This document shows positions 7,599 through 64,000 of a DNA stretch of 64,000 nucleotides, in pieces. How positions within the stretch are numbered: position 1 is the first letter of the stretch; each line of letters opens with the position of its first letter. The position numbers were made by a program, and so were the translations under genes. Source of the DNA: Desulfomonilia bacterium (GTDB lineage Bacteria; Desulfobacterota; Desulfomonilia; UBA1062); the NCBI GenBank assembly GCA_050014195.1, contig JBEKDT010000001.1, positions 410,024-474,023 on the forward strand. Direction: 5' to 3'. Below the pieces are notes generated by a model. That model was given only the letters and a program-made list of their open reading frames with translations, was not told the origin of the DNA and did no database searches.

Positions 7599-8080
7599 CA
7601 ACTGGGCAGGAATCAATAGGAACAGTGTCAAGCGACTGAATTTGTATTCCCCCGTAATGGGAAGATGACGGTGTACCATTTTCCATGCGAGCTGCAGAAT
7701 AAAATCCATTAAATCTTTTCCAAATCAATACGTTTAGATCTTGTTATGAAATCTCTGATAATCAAGTAGCGATAAGAATGTACATTATCATCAATTTCCC
7801 AGGTCTTGTGGAACTGATCAGTTATCGCAGTAATGTTCACTTTGGAAAAAGTGATGCTAATGAGTTATAATCAACAGTAGGCCTATTCAAACTTAGCTTA
7901 GGAATAGTCACATGATCATCGGTTTCTCAGTACTTGATAATAGTATTGCGAGGATTTTAGTATACTGCATTTTGCTTTGAACTTTTATAGTGCTAAGCTG
8001 TAAAAGAGAAGTATATTTATTGTTAGACATTAATGTTTAATGGATTATGCTTATTAGAATAAACTTAGTAGGTGAAAATA

Positions 8081-56722: not shown

Positions 56723-57604
56723 TTGAAATCCGGAGAAGCCAGCCGAACTGCCGAGTTTAATGCGCTGTTCCGTGCTATCGAATCATCACGCCGCCCTCGG
56801 AGCAAGCGGCTTTTTGAGGACCCTCTTGCCCCCGGCTTCCTCGATAGATTGAAGTGCGCCTATTTTATATCACGATTGCCGTTGGTCGGCCGGCTCATAC
56901 CCTTATTTATCGACTGGAACTGGACCGGGGTCAGGGCCTCGGCCATCGGCCGGACATGCTGGATAGATGAGCAGCTTCGCGTTGCGCTCGAGGGCGGCAT
57001 TAGACAGGTCGTAATACTCGGAGCCGGTTACGATTGCCGCGCCTACAGGCTCTCAGGCATCGAACGGACCCGGGTGTTTGAGCTCGACCATCCAAGTACC
57101 CTGGCTGTGAAAGTAAAGCGCCTGAAATATCTCTTGGGCGCTATCCCAAAGCATGTGAGCTTCGTGGAAGTGGATTTCGACCGGCAGGACTTTGCTTTAC
57201 TGCTTGAAACTTCGGGATTCGATCGCTTCGTTCCCACATTCTTTCTCTGGGAAGGGGTCATGCACTATCTTAAAGCCGAGGCCGTCGACATGACTATACG
57301 CTCGATCGCGTCCTTGTCCGCACCCGGGAGCCGCCTCGTCTTCACCTACATCCACAGCGGCCTGCTCGACGGCTCGGTCCGCTTCGGAGACATGGGCCGT
57401 GTACCTGCCACACTGCGGAAGACCGGCGAGACGTGGACATTCGGACTTCGTCCGGAGGAACTCCCGGGTTATCTTGACGGGCGTGGGTTCTCGCTTGTTA
57501 CAGACATCGGCTCCACCGAGTACCGGGTACGTTACATGGGGGAGAAAGGCCGCCACCTGAAGGGCTTTGAGTTCTACCGGGCAGCGCTGGCCGAGGTGAA
57601 ATGA
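56723..57604 (+). CDS. Class I SAM-dependent methyltransferase (LCM/Ppm-like O-methyltransferase family)
   Basis: VVILGAGYDCRAYR SAM-binding motif and LCM-like architecture; 293 aa. Confidence 0.6.
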   Translation: MKSGEASRTAEFNALFRAIESSRRPRSKRLFEDPLAPGFLDRLKCAYFISRLPLVGRLIPLFIDWNWTGVRASAIGRTCWIDEQLRVALEGGIRQVVILGAGYDCRAYRLSGIERTRVFELDHPSTLAVKVKRLKYLLGAIPKHVSFVEVDFDRQDFALLLETSGFDRFVPTFFLWEGVMHYLKAEAVDMTIRSIASLSAPGSRLVFTYIHSGLLDGSVRFGDMGRVPATLRKTGETWTFGLRPEELPGYLDGRGFSLVTDIGSTEYRVRYMGEKGRHLKGFEFYRAALAEVK

Positions 57605-57826
57605 GGATAATTGGTTAGCTTGGTCCGACCCTGAACCTGACAATAATTTTAGGGTACCTCTAATAATGCAGGGGATTTCATATGAATTTATTTTTATTGT
57701 CACCCTGGTCCCCACTTTCGTGGGGATAAACTCCAGCGGGGGTCCAGAACTACTCAAAATAACTGGATTCGAAGCTTCCGCGGGAATGACACTGGGGGTG
57801 AGATCGCTCATTCTTTTTCGAGATCA

Positions 57827-58684
57827 TCAATTTTTTGAGGTGCCTTTTAACCTTTGAGAGGTGATTCTACTCAAGGGAATCACTTCGACCTGATTCGACA
57901 ATCGATAGGTCTTTTCGCCTGGATAGACCACGATCAGACGATCAAGATCCAGATCCGCAAGTGCGATCTTCATCGAGGGAGTTAACCGGGGGGCATCCAT
58001 GCGTTTGCATTCAAGACCGATCTTTCGGCCGTCTATGATCATCAGGAGATCAAGTTCAGCCCCGTTATGTGTGGCCCAGAAATAGAATTCCCTGGGATGA
58101 AATGCCTTAATGGATTCTTCTATCACATAGCCTTCCCAGGATGCACCGCACTTGGGGTGGGTGAGGAGTTTCTTTTCTGTTCGTATGCCGAGCAAACTGT
58201 GTAAAAGGCCCATATCCGTGAAGTAGATCTTGGGTGCCTTAACCTGGCGTTTTTTTAGGTTTGCGTGCCACGGCATCAGCTGCCGGATCATAAACACACC
58301 ATCGAGAAGATCGAGGTATCGCCTTGCTGTGGACTCATTAACACCGAGCGTCCGAGCGGGCTCGGCAGCATTCCAGATCTGCCCATGATAGTGGGCAAGA
58401 ATGGTCCAGAATCTCATGAGCGTTGTTGTCGATGCCCCTATCCCCATGATAGGCAGGTCACGCTCTAAAAAAGTCCGGATGAATGCGCTCCTCCAGGAGA
58501 AGCTTTCTGATTCGCTTTCAGCAAGGAATGAAAGAGGCAGACCTCCTCTGAGCCAATGTCTGGCCTGGTTTTCAATGCCGACTTCAGACAGTGAGAACCC
58601 GCTCAACGTGATGGTTTCCATTCGCCCTGTAAGAGACTCAGATGACTGCCGGAGCCATTGCCTGGATGCACTGCCGAATACCAT
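57827..58684 (-). pseudogene. DUF4143-family gene lacking the usual N-terminal AAA ATPase region (5'-truncated fragment)
   Basis: The translation begins within the region that is mid-protein in full-length AAA+DUF4143 proteins (GRMETITLSGFSLSEV...). Only about 50 nt separate it from the stop of the upstream ERCC4 gene, so there is no room for a Walker A domain. Confidence 0.45.
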
Positions 58685-58734
58685 GATATTGCTGCATGTA
58701 AAGCGGGAATTTCATGGAAATAGAACGGGGTTGT

Positions 58735-59373
58735 TCAAGTGCCGTCCCAGCCCGAGTCCAGGAGTATCCTGATACCCTCAGCCCTGGTTAATCCTATACC
58801 CTCGACTTTCTGAAGCTCCTCAACAGAGGCATTCATGACCCTTGATATCGACCCGAAATGCCCCATCAATCTCTTTGCAAGCCTTGGCCCTATCAGCGGA
58901 AGCCCCTGAAGGAGATACAACTGCCGTGACCTGAGCCTCCTGGGCCGATATCCGCCTCGCAAAGGAACAACGTCCATGTCTTTATCATACTGTGATCCTA
59001 TCATAATCAAAATGTCTCTGGTGTGTTCCTTTGAGCGGGAAAATATCACCGGGGTATGCCAGATCGTCTGAACCGATATGATTGACCCTCTTATGGCATT
59101 GCTGTTGAAATCAAGGTCTGTCATGTATGGATCGCCTTCTATGAGAAGGATCGGACGGCGGCAATACTTTTTCAAATTCGAGAGTTGCCTGAATAACCGC
59201 GTGTCAACTAAAGAGATGAGGAAATCCTTTGCGGTCTTTCTCTCGATGGTTATGGAATCGTTGATCACATAGTCGCCATACGGCAGAGCCTTGACCCGAA
59301 TCTGGATATCATCTCGTGCAAGCTGGTCAATGAGGCCGGAGTCTTTTTCCCGATAATCTATATCTATCCTCAT
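58735..59373 (-). CDS. Short XPF/ERCC4-type nuclease with C-terminal tandem helix-hairpin-helix domain
   Basis: GDYVINDSITIERKTAKD matches the ERCC4 GDx(n)ERKxxxD catalytic signature. The C-terminus GLPLIGPRLAKRLMGHFGSISRVMNASVEELQKVEGIGLTRAEGI is (HhH)2-like; 212 aa. Confidence 0.65.
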   Translation of the reverse strand: MRIDIDYREKDSGLIDQLARDDIQIRVKALPYGDYVINDSITIERKTAKDFLISLVDTRLFRQLSNLKKYCRRPILLIEGDPYMTDLDFNSNAIRGSIISVQTIWHTPVIFSRSKEHTRDILIMIGSQYDKDMDVVPLRGGYRPRRLRSRQLYLLQGLPLIGPRLAKRLMGHFGSISRVMNASVEELQKVEGIGLTRAEGIRILLDSGWDGT

Positions 59374-59406
59374 AGCGATTTCATTTCAGTGAATCATGGG
59401 ATGAAG

Positions 59407-59910
59407 CTAAAACATTTTCTTGTATTGAATCCTCAAAATCTTTCCCTTATTGATATTGTCTCTAAACACCTTTTCACGGTGTCTGGGATAGAGATTCTTG
59501 CCATGTCTTCCTATCCCCTCCAATGCCTTCTCCACGCTGATGGATGTATGTTCAAGTTCCATATATGAGATTAGCTGGATGGCGGAATGATCACATGTGC
59601 AGAACAGTATGTTCTTCACTGATGTGCTCAGGTAGGCAATGGATTCCGTTTCTCCGGGATCAATTCCGAGGAAGGCTTCCCGTGCTTCCAGCTTCACCTT
59701 CTTCAGCAACTGCTCATCAAGAACATCTACAATCGTAACTTTGTCCTTGATATCAATCGGGAGGGCCTGATCTTTATATGGATAAAATCGTGCTTCCCGA
59801 AAGACTGTACGGACAACGTAAACATCATAACCTCTGGTAATAGCATCAAAGAGCTGAAGCGAGTGAAGGTCGATGATCACATCCGCATCAAGCAACACCA
59901 ATTTTTTCAT
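59407..59910 (-). CDS. PIN-like domain protein (DUF4411-like)
   Basis: MKKLVLLDADVIID followed by spaced acidic residues (E in REARF, D in GIDPGETE, D in CDHS), consistent with a PIN fold. It overlaps the 3' end of the upstream XRE-ImmA gene. Confidence 0.6.
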   Translation of the reverse strand: MKKLVLLDADVIIDLHSLQLFDAITRGYDVYVVRTVFREARFYPYKDQALPIDIKDKVTIVDVLDEQLLKKVKLEAREAFLGIDPGETESIAYLSTSVKNILFCTCDHSAIQLISYMELEHTSISVEKALEGIGRHGKNLYPRHREKVFRDNINKGKILRIQYKKMF

Positions 59911-61036
59911 AGTGCTCTTCCACAAAGCCTTTCCCTGCTAAATAGGAATCTACCTCGTGGCGCTCGATGCTTAGGTATTGTGCGAACAACCCCCGTGAGA
60001 TCCGTCCTTCCATCAGGCAGCGGCATGCCAGTGATACATATCTCTGTGGGAACACCGGAGGCGTCTCCTCATCCTGCGCTTCCTGCCTGAGAGACCGGTC
60101 CAACTCGCGAACCTCGGGGTCTGCAAGATGGGCCTCCACATCCTTTTTCTTCAGTTTTCCAAGATTGACCAGCCTCCACAGAATGGCTTCCATTGATACC
60201 TCAAACTCAAGGGCAAGCTCGATGAGGTCTATGATGCGTATCTCGCCTCCAACAGAGATTTCCCTGAGCGCTTCCAGAAGAGCTGTCTCGGGCAGGAGCA
60301 GGTATGAAGCAAAGATATCCGCGTACTGTTCCGGTCTCGTCTTCTTCCCTTCGCCGATCTCTTTGTGGCTGAATAACTCCCAGGTGAGTACATGAAAAAA
60401 CTCATGTGCCAGGTCGTAGTTCCTTCTCCATGGCTTATCGCTGCTGTTGATGAGGATGCCCACCCCCAGGGCATCATCCACGACACAAGCCCCGGATATG
60501 GATTTATCGAACTGCATATGAAAGATCCGGTATCTGAGTGTCTGTTCAAGAATGTTCCGTAATTTAGATGCAGGCCTGCTCCCCAGATCGAGAATGCGGT
60601 GGATATCGTGTGCAAGGTTAGCCGCACACTCATATCCATGGCTGTCGAAGTTGGTACGCTCGCAGTTGACCGGAAGCCTCCGTATCTGGGGCTTTATCTG
60701 CAGGAGTCGTTCGAGCTCGGTATAATGCTCCAGGTGCTCAAGGAAGGTACGCTCCTGCTTTTTCACATCCGTATCGGGCGATTTTCTCCACAACGGCTTG
60801 GGGTCGGGCCTTATGTCCTGATCGAAGAAGTACAGGATGTCGCGTCGGTACAGACGGGCCATTGAGATGAGCTCGTGAGCATTGATGCTGCGCTTGCCCT
60901 TCTCGATGTCCGAGAGGGTCTGGTAATTGTTGAATCCGAGCTCTTTTGAAGCTTCTTTGAGGTTGTACCCTGCGGTATCCCTGGCCGTTACGAGCCGGTC
61001 TACGAGGATCTTCTGCTTTTCTTGTGTCATAAGCAC
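59888..61036 (-). CDS. XRE-family HTH fused to an ImmA/IrrE (Peptidase_M78, COG2856) zinc metallopeptidase domain
   Basis: The N-terminal HTH_3 (LKEASKELGFNNYQTLSDIEKGKRSINAHELISMARL) is followed by an HEFFH (HExxH) motif in an ImmA/IrrE-like domain; 382 aa. Confidence 0.8.
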   Translation of the reverse strand: MLMTQEKQKILVDRLVTARDTAGYNLKEASKELGFNNYQTLSDIEKGKRSINAHELISMARLYRRDILYFFDQDIRPDPKPLWRKSPDTDVKKQERTFLEHLEHYTELERLLQIKPQIRRLPVNCERTNFDSHGYECAANLAHDIHRILDLGSRPASKLRNILEQTLRYRIFHMQFDKSISGACVVDDALGVGILINSSDKPWRRNYDLAHEFFHVLTWELFSHKEIGEGKKTRPEQYADIFASYLLLPETALLEALREISVGGEIRIIDLIELALEFEVSMEAILWRLVNLGKLKKKDVEAHLADPEVRELDRSLRQEAQDEETPPVFPQRYVSLACRCLMEGRISRGLFAQYLSIERHEVDSYLAGKGFVEEHYEKIGVA

Positions 61037-61045
61037 CCTTTGATA

Positions 61046-61064
61046 GATAAGATATTCTTATCTT
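61046..61064. promoter_or_regulatory. Near-perfect palindromic operator candidate upstream of the XRE-ImmA gene
   Basis: AGATAAGAT-ATTCTTATCT lies about 10-30 nt upstream of the start codon at 61036. A TATAAT-like hexamer sits next to it at 61071-61078. Confidence 0.4.
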
Positions 61065-61234
61065 TTCCATTATAATATCGTCAATAGAATAAGATTAATT
61101 TATGGTCTTGTCAAGAGTTGGTTGTCTGTGAAATGTGTATCTATGTGGTATCAATTTCATGATTGATGATTATTTTGGAAAAGGAGATCTATGGGGAGGA
61201 TCACTCGGTACGACCCGTTAGAAACGTCCCCTTT

Positions 61235-61753
61235 TTACCCCTGCTCCAGGATGAACCGGAAATCGCAATGTGGTGCTCCCTGCATGATGGTCTGAGTTCG
61301 CAACAGCCTTATCCGAGGGTTGAAGCCCCTCGCAAATGGTTCATCCCGGCTGCAGGAAAGGCAGAAGCCGAACTCCCTCAAGCCCATCCTGTCATACAGC
61401 TCGACATAGCCACAGCGGATCACATCGAAGCTCAGCTTCAGCTCGGACTCTTCACGCATACGAATCACAATGGCATCATCTTCGGACCATATTTCCTTTA
61501 CCACGCGGCTCAATTCTCTCAGGGAATTCCCGCCGTACTTATCGGCCATCATCCTGCCTGAGGCCAGCGCATCGGCCTGAATAGCCGCAGTTGCGGCTTC
61601 CATGGCTTTATCATGACCCAGAACACTTCCGAATCCCCTTATGAGACACGCTGCTATCGGCGCTTGAATCTCCCGGCGCATGAGATGGCTGATCGCAAGC
61701 GAAGGTTGTTGAATGTTCTGACTGTCGGGGCTGTGCTGGTCTTCTCTGCTCAT
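61235..61753 (-). CDS. L-2-amino-thiazoline-4-carboxylic acid hydrolase-like family protein
   Basis: C-terminal CLSCSRD...GAPHCDFRF resembles the ATC-hydrolase family motif; 172 aa. This is a moderate-confidence family guess. Confidence 0.45.
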   Translation of the reverse strand: MSREDQHSPDSQNIQQPSLAISHLMRREIQAPIAACLIRGFGSVLGHDKAMEAATAAIQADALASGRMMADKYGGNSLRELSRVVKEIWSEDDAIVIRMREESELKLSFDVIRCGYVELYDRMGLREFGFCLSCSRDEPFARGFNPRIRLLRTQTIMQGAPHCDFRFILEQG

Positions 61754-61964: not shown

Positions 61965-62618
61965 TTATCGCACATCTTTCCCTGCAAACCGGGCTCCCAT
62001 TTCAAAGGCCTTTCTGCAATCTTCCGGAAACACCTCTCTGCGCCTTTTAGCCTTTTTCACGGGATCAAACCGGGATGAAACCACTTTTGCATAATCCTCG
62101 AACTGATAGGTATCGAAACAGAAGAGCGACTCGGACGCGCCGAATATCATCTGCAGAACCATCTCCTGTATGCCCAGGTGCAGGGCGTAGCCCCATTCTT
62201 TCAGCTCCTCTTCCTTGATATTCATCGTATAGATCAACCCGGTATGAATCTTTCTCGGGAAGATCGCCTGGTATGGATCCGTATACGCGGTGAAGGGGAA
62301 CATCAGGCGCTCCATGAACGATTTCATCTCTCCGGTAACCGTTCCGAAATAAATCGGGGAGCCAAGGATGACGGCATCGGCTTCTTCGACTTTTTTGAAC
62401 ACAGGAGCCAGATCATCTTTTACCGCGCACCTGCCGTAACTCTTTCCACCTATGGTCTTGCAGGCAAAACAGCTTATGCAGCCTTTATAGTTCAGATCGT
62501 AGAGATGAATGAGCTCGGTTTCAGCCCCCTGTGACGAAGCCCCTTCCAGGGCCTTTTCAAGCAGAGTTGCCGTATTCCATTTCTTTCTCGGACTTCCGTT
62601 TATTGCCATGACCTTCAT
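61965..62618 (-). CDS. Flavodoxin-like fold NAD(P)H-dependent FMN reductase
   Basis: MKVMAINGSPRKKWNTATLL. A strong Shine-Dalgarno sequence AAGGAGGTGA lies just upstream of the ATG at 62618 on the minus strand; 217 aa. Confidence 0.75.
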   Translation of the reverse strand: MKVMAINGSPRKKWNTATLLEKALEGASSQGAETELIHLYDLNYKGCISCFACKTIGGKSYGRCAVKDDLAPVFKKVEEADAVILGSPIYFGTVTGEMKSFMERLMFPFTAYTDPYQAIFPRKIHTGLIYTMNIKEEELKEWGYALHLGIQEMVLQMIFGASESLFCFDTYQFEDYAKVVSSRFDPVKKAKRRREVFPEDCRKAFEMGARFAGKDVR

Positions 62619-63102
62619 AGGCTTCACCTCCTTATTTATGTTACAATACAAAAATAAAAATGGATTGACAATGAGAGTAGGGAGAGTTCTTTATTTCAGA
62701 TAGAAACGTCCCCTTATATTTGAAGGTGCTTATCCAGGCAGTAAAACGTAATATCGACCGTTTTCTGATGATTTTATGTTTCAACTTTCCAGAGAAGAAT
62801 TTGAAAACTTGAGGTCACAAATTGTGACCTTAAATAGAGGCGGCCGTCGCTATCTCCCTTATGCATTCACAGAACAAGGCTTGATGCAAGGCGAACAAGC
62901 CGATGAAATCCGGGGACACCATTGCTTGTGATGCTGATATATACCGTTTCAAGTTATCACCCGATGCCTAATGCCTCATCAGGAACAATTCAAGATACTT
63001 GTATATCACAAAAAGAAAACCCGTTATTGCAGTCAAGATAGCTACAAACATTTTCAGCTTTTCCATATGTACGCCCCCGCCCTTTCTTTCCAATGGGAAG
63101 AG

Positions 63103-63607
63103 CTATATAGATTCTTGAGCACCAATATCGATTATCCTTTGTTTAAGAGCATTTATAATATCTTGAGGAATTTCCTTGTATTTCTTAAGCAATCCTTTTA
63201 CGACGTAATACGGGTTTAAAATCAGTATGTAATTGTAATCACCTGATGCACCTGGTTTCGCCTCAATAAATCCAAGTTCTGTTAATATTTTCATTCGATC
63301 TTTCCATGTCCTTTCTGCTCTTTCTCCTGTAAAGCCGGATTCAAGGGCAAACATTCTTGGATTATCGATTGTCACCATTGCCTCATCAAAAACATGGTGC
63401 CACAAGGCCATATAGGTCGATGATAAGGGTTTGCCTGAAGAGAGATGGTTCATTATGAGGCAGAAGTACGTCAATGTCCTCGGAATTGTTGTATAACCAT
63501 CACTGGTTTTTCTGTTCCACAGCTTATCTTCAGGAATCTCATTCCAAAGCTGATCTCTGAGGTCCATTTTTTTCTTATGAATTCTTTGTGATCTTTTCTG
63601 TGACATT
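63103..63607 (-). CDS. Hypothetical protein in an AT-rich islet
   Basis: An ORF of 168 aa (from MSQKRSQR) to 194 aa with a basic N-terminus. No family was recognised. Confidence 0.4.
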
Positions 63608-63818
63608 GTTTTCTCCTTTCTTTCAAGTATTATATTGCTGACTAATATATTATTAAGCAAGCAATAACAAGGACTTATGTAATACAAATAAAATAAGCAT
63701 GCCCGTGTTAACTGTTATCTCGATATATCAGTAGGCAAATACATGTCAACTCAATATTCAATAGGAATAAAAAGGCGTTATAAAAATCAATTGCTCCTAT
63801 AAATTCAAAATGATTGCG

Positions 63819-63869
63819 ATTTTGCACTGTGCTCTATGTGCTTATAGTGCTTATTTGTGCTGCTTGTCC
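63819..63869. repeat. Iteron-like direct repeats (GTGCT at 9-10 bp spacing)
   Basis: GTGCT at 63819, 63828, 63837, 63847 and 63865, with the first four in helical phase (TGTGCTCTA / TGTGCTTAT / AGTGCTTAT / TGTGCTGCT), in the AT-rich region upstream of the 63103-63607 gene. Confidence 0.35.
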
Positions 63870-64000
63870 TCATGGTGCTCATGTGGGTTCCAAGGGAGGC
63901 ACTATCTGATACATAAAATTATGGATCATGATAATTAAAGATACCATTACCTTAAAGAGATGAGGGTCAGGTCCCAACAATTAACACCCTTCTTGAAGCT

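Follow-up and report, generated by a model that had tools for sequence, protein, structure and literature searches.

The locus described here lies in a 64-kb window, the whole 64,000-nucleotide stretch that was analysed (contig JBEKDT010000001.1, positions 410,024 to 474,023), from the metagenome-assembled genome (MAG) of a Desulfomonilia bacterium. Its minus strand carries a gene fusing an XRE-type helix-turn-helix (HTH) to an ImmA/IrrE-type zinc metallopeptidase of family M78 (hereafter XRE-M78), a gene for a small PIN-fold protein and a gene for a short XPF-like nuclease composed of an ERCC4 domain and a tandem helix-hairpin-helix, (HhH)2. The initial annotation had read the three as one candidate system in which an XRE-M78 switch controls two nucleases. 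Comparison with related loci leads us to a different reading, to which we assign a probability of roughly 0.8: two independent units stand side by side, an XRE-M78/PIN cassette and a resident ERCC4-(HhH)2 nuclease gene. The two-gene pair is a fresh member of the already known HTH-COG2856 + PIN / RosmerTA class, located upstream of a backbone nuclease gene, and a three-component XRE-M78 + PIN + ERCC4 system is not supported. Four minus-strand open reading frames (ORFs) follow one another within 57827-61036, and the three under discussion are present at the coordinates first proposed for them:

59888..61036, minus strand: XRE-HTH/Peptidase_M78 fusion (COG2856, ImmA/IrrE-type), RmrA-like regulator and putative antitoxin (Pfam, PADLOC, HEFFH motif)
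59407..59910, minus strand: PIN-fold (VapC-like) putative toxin of a family without a Pfam model (AlphaFold2, Foldseek, invariant acidic residues)
58735..59373, minus strand: ERCC4-(HhH)2 short XPF/Hef-type nuclease, backbone neighbour of the cassette (domains, identity, synonymous divergence dS)

Co-occurrence of the three genes

The association between these genes was surveyed from both sides. On the PIN side, metagenomes were scanned with the PIN alignment, yielding 80 loci of which 70 could be tested upstream and 51 offered at least 700 nt downstream. On the ERCC4 side, one genome per GTDB species was scanned, yielding 36 loci in which all ORFs were compared by phmmer. The related loci, numbered with the prefix L, comprise near-identical contigs (L001-L007), sister genomes sharing the same flanks (L008, L012 and L120), the more distant L009 and many unrelated ones.

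An XRE-M78 gene lies directly upstream of the PIN homolog and overlaps it in all 70 testable metagenomic loci, so that the tight linkage of these two genes, as initially proposed, is amply confirmed. ERCC4 follows PIN in only 1 of the 51 loci testable downstream; this locus, L120, possesses the ATC-hydrolase, LCM and RecD2 genes of the window and therefore represents the window's own lineage. Seen from the other side, XRE-M78 occurs near ERCC4 in a single one of the 36 species-level genomes, the close relative L012, and 33 of the 36 loci contain neither XRE-M78 nor PIN within 8 kb, their ERCC4 genes being found in other contexts. The role of third, co-conserved effector attributed to ERCC4 is not supported by these counts: the triad is not co-conserved outside one narrow lineage, an outcome that the initial annotation had itself named beforehand as counting against a joint system.

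Elsewhere the neighbours of the pair are diverse and include methyltransferases, restriction-modification (R-M) subunits, Fic, HNH/AAA_15, dehydrogenases and metabolic genes. One gene recurs: at least six loci (L009:7317-7976, L048:4706-5365, L052, L059, L063, L125 and L127, with weaker instances in L107 and L116/L117) have a same-strand RadC gene (UPF0758_N plus a RadC-like JAB domain) that follows the pair after 25-180 nt. Because the RadC-bearing loci span the divergence range of PIN (51-85% identity) and differ in context, RadC is a better-supported recurrent third gene than ERCC4.

Discordant divergence of the cassette and its neighbours

The pair and ERCC4 also differ in their relatedness to the sister genomes. 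At the nucleotide level, the flanks of the window are 92-97% identical to L012, L008 and L120 and ERCC4 is 96% identical; XRE-M78 shows patchy identity of 69-76% and PIN gives no nucleotide match with these three loci. On the ERCC4 side, identity breaks off at 59374, a single base ahead of that gene's start codon; the opposite break lies at 61117-61213. Considering L009, L048, L012, L008 and L120 together, homology to the window begins at 61115-61117 and stops before ERCC4. The proteins display the same discordance:

Window versus L008/L012/L120: XRE-M78 57-59%; PIN 50-51% (absent in L012); ERCC4 94-95%; LCM 96-97%; RecD2 91-95%
Window versus L009: XRE-M78 92%; PIN 82%; ERCC4 84%
Window versus L048 (unrelated context): XRE-M78 82%; PIN 85%; no ERCC4

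Between close relatives, ERCC4 has a dS of 0.07-0.10 (ratio of nonsynonymous to synonymous divergence, dN/dS, 0.24-0.43), comparable values of 0.05-0.36 being obtained for the flanking LCM, RecD2 and ATC hydrolase genes, and the alignable part of XRE-M78 reaches about 0.9-1.3. In L012 the PIN gene has been reduced by an internal deletion to a stub of 33 codons and ERCC4 is intact. Fast evolution of the pair in situ was considered and rejected on two grounds: the dS of XRE-M78 is about 1 versus 0.07-0.16 in adjacent genes, and the pair of the window is closer to those of L009 and L048 than to those of the sister genomes. The discordant identity and dS values, together with the PIN stub of L012, thus identify ERCC4 as part of the chromosomal backbone and the pair as a separately inherited, exchangeable cassette extending over about 59407-61117. 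From these alignments it appears that the cassette allele was exchanged immediately upstream of ERCC4 in the lineage of the window.

Promoter, candidate operator and cassette boundaries

Three short features delimit the cassette or would control it:

61086..61114, minus strand: promoter-like site of the cassette, TTGACA-17-TATTCT, the only sigma-70-like coding-strand site in 57600-61400
61046..61062, no strand assigned: perfect palindrome GATAAGAATATCTTATC, candidate operator, between promoter and start codon
59374..59406, minus strand: 33-nt spacer from PIN stop to ERCC4 start, downstream boundary of the exchanged cassette (identity resumes at 59374)

The promoter-like site marks the upstream edge of the cassette, homology to unrelated loci starting at about 61117. 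Its TTGACA is invariant across an alignment of nine pair loci from unrelated contexts, and equivalent sites are found in L120 and L009. Conservation in pair loci from unrelated contexts concerns TTGACA, a CTTAT element, CCGATA and the palindrome. The palindrome GATAAGAATATCTTATC occurs once in the window; of 45 distinct loci, 18 have it ahead of XRE-M78 when up to three mismatches are allowed, versus no match in 285 kb of background. A conserved promoter accompanied by a conserved palindrome fits autoregulation by the HTH, and we infer that the palindrome is the operator bound by the XRE domain. A wider XRE-M78 regulon was sought and discarded: within the window, the palindrome with up to three mismatches is present only at the module's own promoter.

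The downstream boundary retains a trace of its history. The spacer contains TGAAATGAAAT, and in L009, where the gene order is hsdRMS - XRE-M78 - PIN - RadC - ERCC4, the RadC gene is flanked by TGAAATGAAAT and TGAAATGGAAG; one copy remains at the corresponding junction of the window. The arrangement of the window probably derives from an L009-like pair-RadC-ERCC4 arrangement. RadC is precisely absent from the window at the place where L009 carries it between PIN and ERCC4. Terminal repeats or att-like sites were considered as well and rejected, the region around the cassette offering only short two-copy repeats of chance quality such as 15-nt inverted arms at 59368-59382 and 61259-61273; this repeat search identified no mobility mechanism for the cassette.

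Several observations weigh against two independent units and would be expected of a lineage-specific three-gene system, in which ERCC4 would be a second effector, or a repair or immunity partner, placed on the XRE-M78-controlled promoter. Despite allele exchange, the pair is always immediately upstream of ERCC4 in the five related loci (the window, L008, L012, L120 and L009); the ERCC4 gene starts 24-122 nt after the pair in the lineage harbouring both units and after RadC in L009. In the window no more than 33 nt separate PIN from ERCC4, and our scanner, a crude, consensus-based one, detected neither a terminator-like site on the coding strand between the two genes nor an independent sigma-70-like promoter for ERCC4 in the window, L120 or L009, where ERCC4 has no promoter-like site upstream other than the one belonging to the cassette. 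In addition, the genome-wide scans relied on short exact peptide patterns and sample the families without being exhaustive. Since no terminator and no separate promoter were found, transcription from the cassette promoter may continue into ERCC4 and a lineage-specific regulatory coupling is conceivable. Against a three-gene system stand the absence of co-conservation outside the lineage in both surveys, the divergence of ERCC4, which tracks the backbone and not the pair, and the intact ERCC4 of L012 where PIN has been destroyed. Furthermore, the closest pair outside the lineage, in L048, has no ERCC4, and ERCC4 orthologs elsewhere reside among housekeeping or polysaccharide genes. We consider such a system unlikely and retain the interpretation of two adjacent units, in which ERCC4 may share a transcript with the cassette without being one of its components.

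The proteins of the pair

The XRE-M78 ORF encodes 382 amino acids, or 380 from the ATG at 61030, the start used by gene callers on the identical contigs and likely the authentic one. The fusion predicted in the initial annotation stands: residues 18-70 match Pfam HTH_3 (E = 5.5e-7, 30 bits versus a cut-off of 23) and residues 170-289 match Peptidase_M78 (PF06114; E = 6.2e-12, 45.8 bits versus a cut-off of 22), and the translation contains the HEFFH zinc motif. This HExxH motif, in the form HELFH, is kept in 49 of 49 distinct XRE-M78 partner homologs. Sixteen RmrA profiles of PADLOC, whose models carry no curated cut-off, match the protein, the best with E = 6.5e-22 and 76 bits over residues 8-298. 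The equivalog level of the NCBIfam spr1629 repressor/antitoxin is not reached (60.8 bits versus a cut-off of 335), which makes the two proteins related only.

The PIN gene overlaps the upstream XRE-M78 gene by 23 nt. Its product matches no profile in Pfam (E <= 0.01), NCBIfam or PADLOC, and its fold was recognized from structure prediction. An AlphaFold2 model built on 28 homologs has a predicted local distance difference test (pLDDT) score of 90.5, and its ten top Foldseek matches in the PDB are all PIN/VapC proteins with a probability of 1.0 and template-modelling (TM) scores of 0.51-0.66; among the matches, 1y82, 1v96 and 5h4g score 0.55-0.66. Residues D8, D10, E39, E87 and D107 are invariant among the 28 homologs, and the motifs LLDAD and FC[TS]CD are found in nearly all of 69 distinct homologs. 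The PIN-like fold originally assigned to this protein is consequently upheld; the DUF4411-like label that came with it is not, as none of the 28 family members matches DUF4411 (PF14367) at E <= 1 and hmmscan of the window protein gives no DUF4411 match at E <= 0.01. Weak matches to PIN_4 are obtained for 9 of the 28 members, and precomputed DUF3368 matches exist for 2 of 120 homologs. The protein belongs to an unannotated PIN/VapC-like subfamily. A tblastn search of 72,556 plasmids gave no match for this family.

Proposed mechanism

The pair most likely operates as an HTH-COG2856 + PIN toxin-antitoxin (TA) or defence module, a 'three-domain' TA system resembling RosmerTA, and we hold this to be probable. 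The XRE-HTH/M78 protein would bind the palindromic operator at its own promoter and repress transcription, and it would neutralize or limit the PIN nuclease, the two genes being presumably coupled in translation by the 23 nt that they share. The expected signal, for instance phage infection or DNA damage, would act through the metallopeptidase domain and relieve repression or neutralization, upon which the PIN nuclease would arrest growth.

The XRE-M78 protein could alternatively be mainly a damage-responsive switch of the IrrE/DdrO or ImmA/ImmR type that induces RadC and ERCC4, PIN being an accessory. M78/COG2856 proteases are known damage sensors (PMC2701414), and RadC and ERCC4, the recurring and the lineage-specific downstream gene, both carry HhH DNA-binding modules. 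The recurrence of RadC behind the pair in different contexts, and its position between PIN and ERCC4 in L009, would agree with this scheme. On the other hand, PIN, with its conserved catalytic acidic residues, is the invariant partner in every testable locus, most downstream genes are unrelated, and an operator palindrome occurring once in the window gives no sign of a regulon; such a switch seems quite improbable to us.

It may also be asked whether the TA or defence module still functions in the window genome or has decayed to a non-functional remnant. TA cassettes decay often, and the sister genome L012, with its PIN stub and a possibly frameshifted XRE-M78, provides an example. The window, by comparison, has two ORFs of full length, retains HEFFH together with every invariant PIN residue, and carries an intact promoter-like site and perfect palindrome; the PIN dN/dS of 0.16 relative to L009 indicates purifying selection. 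Decay is therefore very improbable.

Comparison with known systems

Modules combining an HTH-DUF955 (COG2856/ImmA) fusion with a PIN-like toxin were described by Makarova, Wolf and Koonin (2009; PMC2701414) and by Matelska, Steczkiewicz and Ginalski (2017; PMC5499597), in both cases as computational predictions. The window pair resembles them in the N-terminal Xre HTH fused to an HExxH zinc peptidase (DUF955, that is COG2856/ImmA), in the placement of the fusion gene just ahead of, and in overlap with, a small gene whose PIN-like product has four conserved acidic residues, and in its mobility, many copies of the pair standing beside R-M genes. It differs by a PIN protein that matches neither DUF4411 nor any Pfam PIN model in profile hidden Markov model (HMM) searches.

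Experimental validation of zinc-peptidase antitoxins, paired with toxins of other kinds, comes from RosmerTA (Millman 2022, preprint 10.1101/2022.05.11.491447; Ernits 2023, PMC10440598), and the ImmA/Rosmer antitoxin node has been associated with PIN-like toxins (Ernits et al., PMC10440598). The window pair shares with RosmerTA (RmrT/RmrA) the match of its XRE-M78 protein to RmrA profiles and the pairing of a zinc-peptidase antitoxin with a variable toxin. In contrast, no RmrT profile matches the PIN protein, the Rosmer toxins that have been validated belong to different types, membrane-depolarizing ones among them, and the defence role of the window pair is putative.

ImmR/ImmA of ICEBs1 and DdrO/IrrE of Deinococcus likewise associate an M78/COG2856 metallopeptidase with an Xre-type HTH repressor function, and share with the window a palindromic candidate operator at the module's own promoter. 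Unlike these systems, the window unites repressor and protease in one fused polypeptide, the gene putatively controlled is a PIN toxin rather than an integrase or a repair regulon, and the operator palindrome is single.

The ERCC4-(HhH)2 nuclease family

The identification of the third gene as a short XPF with ERCC4 and tandem HhH domains proved correct. The protein of 212 amino acids, ending in ...LLDSGWDGT, matches the ERCC4 domain (PF02732, E = 6.6e-28) and, at its C-terminus, HHH_2 (E = 2e-10) and HHH_5 (E = 7e-10) in Pfam. G33-D34-Y35, E44-R45-K46 and D50, forming the GDx(n)ERKxxxD signature, are invariant among 25 homologs. The whole length aligns with Aeropyrum pernix XPF (2bgw/2bhn; E = 1e-27, 33% identity), residues 146-205 align to the HhH domain of Hef (1x2i), and in the structural comparison initially suggested, the model superposes on the nuclease domain of Pyrococcus Hef (1j22; TM score 0.90, root-mean-square deviation 1.5 A). 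Equivalog levels are not attained for archaeal Xpf (NF040956; 119 bits versus a cut-off of 300) or for Hef (NF010337; 196.5 bits versus 610, covering only Hef model positions 572-779). The protein shares its two-domain architecture, its length and the GDY...ERK...D residues with the short XPF of A. pernix and with Pyrococcus furiosus Hef (1j22/1x2i), from which it differs by its bacterial host, a Desulfomonilia MAG, by the lack of PCNA in that host and by the absence of an attached helicase. By analogy with archaeal XPF/Hef, it would most likely serve the host as a structure-specific DNA endonuclease of the flap or fork type, acting as a homodimer. Its candidacy as a defence gene was dismissed, as no PADLOC model matches it.

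A survey published in 2012 gave ERCC4 as archaeal and eukaryotic only (PMC3424549), and the initial annotation called the short XPF architecture uncommon in bacteria, a statement that needs qualification. The protein of the window recurs on numerous metagenomic contigs, and the protein search returned 478 clusters for the family whose names, where given, are those of Deltaproteobacteria/Desulfobacterota MAGs; almost all ERCC4-side loci are titled likewise, and the orthologs in the 36 loci are 55-67% identical to the window protein (94% in L012). Genes for short ERCC4-domain proteins also occur on 155 plasmids (136 from Pseudomonas), with 32-36% identity over the full length of the window protein; proteins resembling short XPF are thus no rarity among bacterial mobile elements. 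Examples are NZ_CP132996.1:157074-157775, NC_007949.1:172373-173026 and NZ_CP010312.1:138471-139115. Small hypothetical genes surround ERCC4 in the three plasmids inspected, and no XRE-M78 or PIN gene was present near the plasmid-borne short ERCC4 genes inspected (Pseudomonas, Geoalkalibacter and Polaromonas). Carriage of the window family by phages was also considered and rejected, the only matches being distant Hef-like genes of archaeal viruses.

The chromosomal settings of ERCC4 orthologs follow several patterns. In at least 11 species, a winged-HTH regulator, a NusG-like gene and ERCC4 precede NAD-epimerase and polysaccharide-synthesis genes on the same strand (L015, L017, L019, L021, L022, L025, L026, L030, L033, L043 and L044, with ERCC4 at about position 8001 in most), an odd place for a DNA nuclease. 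A ComEA-like HhH gene lies upstream of the ortholog in about nine species. A DinG/XPD-like helicase gene is immediately upstream in L010, L011, L020 and L046 (L010:6173-7957, L011:5905-7689, L020:178-2004 and L046:5905-7689); the helicase has 594 amino acids with DEAD and Helicase_C_2 domains and is encoded about 44 nt from ERCC4 on the same strand, and this bacterial pairing of a helicase with an XPF nuclease recalls a split Hef or XPD-XPF. Two records titled as chromosomes of archaeal MAGs, L016 (CP070751.1, 'Thermoplasmata archaeon', 5.16 Mb) and L028 (CP070739.1, 'Methanomassiliicoccales archaeon', 3.2 Mb), contain a Desulfobacterota-type ERCC4 with 62-66% identity; both share the downstream epimerase neighbour with other loci, L016 also has the winged-HTH regulator upstream, and wrong titles or chimeric bins may be the explanation.

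Flanking genes

The span of 57827-61080 first given for the module does contain the three genes; it also takes in a fourth one that had gone undescribed:

57827..58684, minus strand: remnant of an AAA_14/DUF4143 ATPase gene truncated at its 5' end, outside the module (Pfam, PADLOC, sister genomes)

DUF4143 is recognized with E = 2.6e-43, and of the 129 AAA_14 positions just the final 34 remain; a DUF4143 gene lacking most of its AAA_14 domain is hence a remnant. It matches the PADLOC candidate-defence family PDC-S01 (E = 3.2e-54). Present in the window and in L001-L007, it is missing from L120 and L012, where ERCC4 joins LCM or RecD2 directly; it is an indel relative to the sister genomes and makes the region that follows ERCC4 a second site of variation. 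In L012 (8001-10960), ERCC4 is followed by RecD2 after a 57-nt gap, the window having the LCM methyltransferase gene and the DUF4143 remnant in between; the ERCC4-RecD2 order may be ancestral in the lineage. L008 (4701-9507) holds a tandem second RecD2 copy split into ORFs of 505 and 199 amino acids, suggesting either a frameshifted duplication or an artefact of the assembly. The end of the window (62500-64000) is AT-rich, with a GC content of 0.35-0.42, and holds a 194-amino-acid ORF with no assigned function; beyond it, on the longer contigs (L001:4477-6598), lie an ORF6N fragment and a restriction-type gene with Mrr_cat and zinc-ribbon domains. This AT-rich stretch hints at a small islet beside the locus, either horizontally acquired or of defence type.

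Implications

Were the three-gene system real, an XPF-type DNA nuclease would join the effectors under ImmA/IrrE-type switches. The evidence points instead to a cassette of the usual HTH-COG2856 + PIN kind, adjoined by a backbone gene to which it is unrelated. A narrower form of coupling, in which ERCC4 would be wired to the XRE-M78 switch in one Desulfomonilia lineage and co-induced with the PIN toxin on phage or DNA-damage signalling, is doubtful; if true, ERCC4 would be a second effector or a repair function limiting self-damage, and this would amount to a lineage-specific co-option and no general system. The analysis documents the archaeal-type short XPF as a conserved gene family in Desulfobacterota. 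The PIN subfamily is well delimited and widespread, has no Pfam model, is always paired with an RmrA-like protein and is accompanied by a conserved candidate operator, and the PIN/XRE-M78 pair is a clean test candidate for the way in which fused XRE-M78 antitoxins work.

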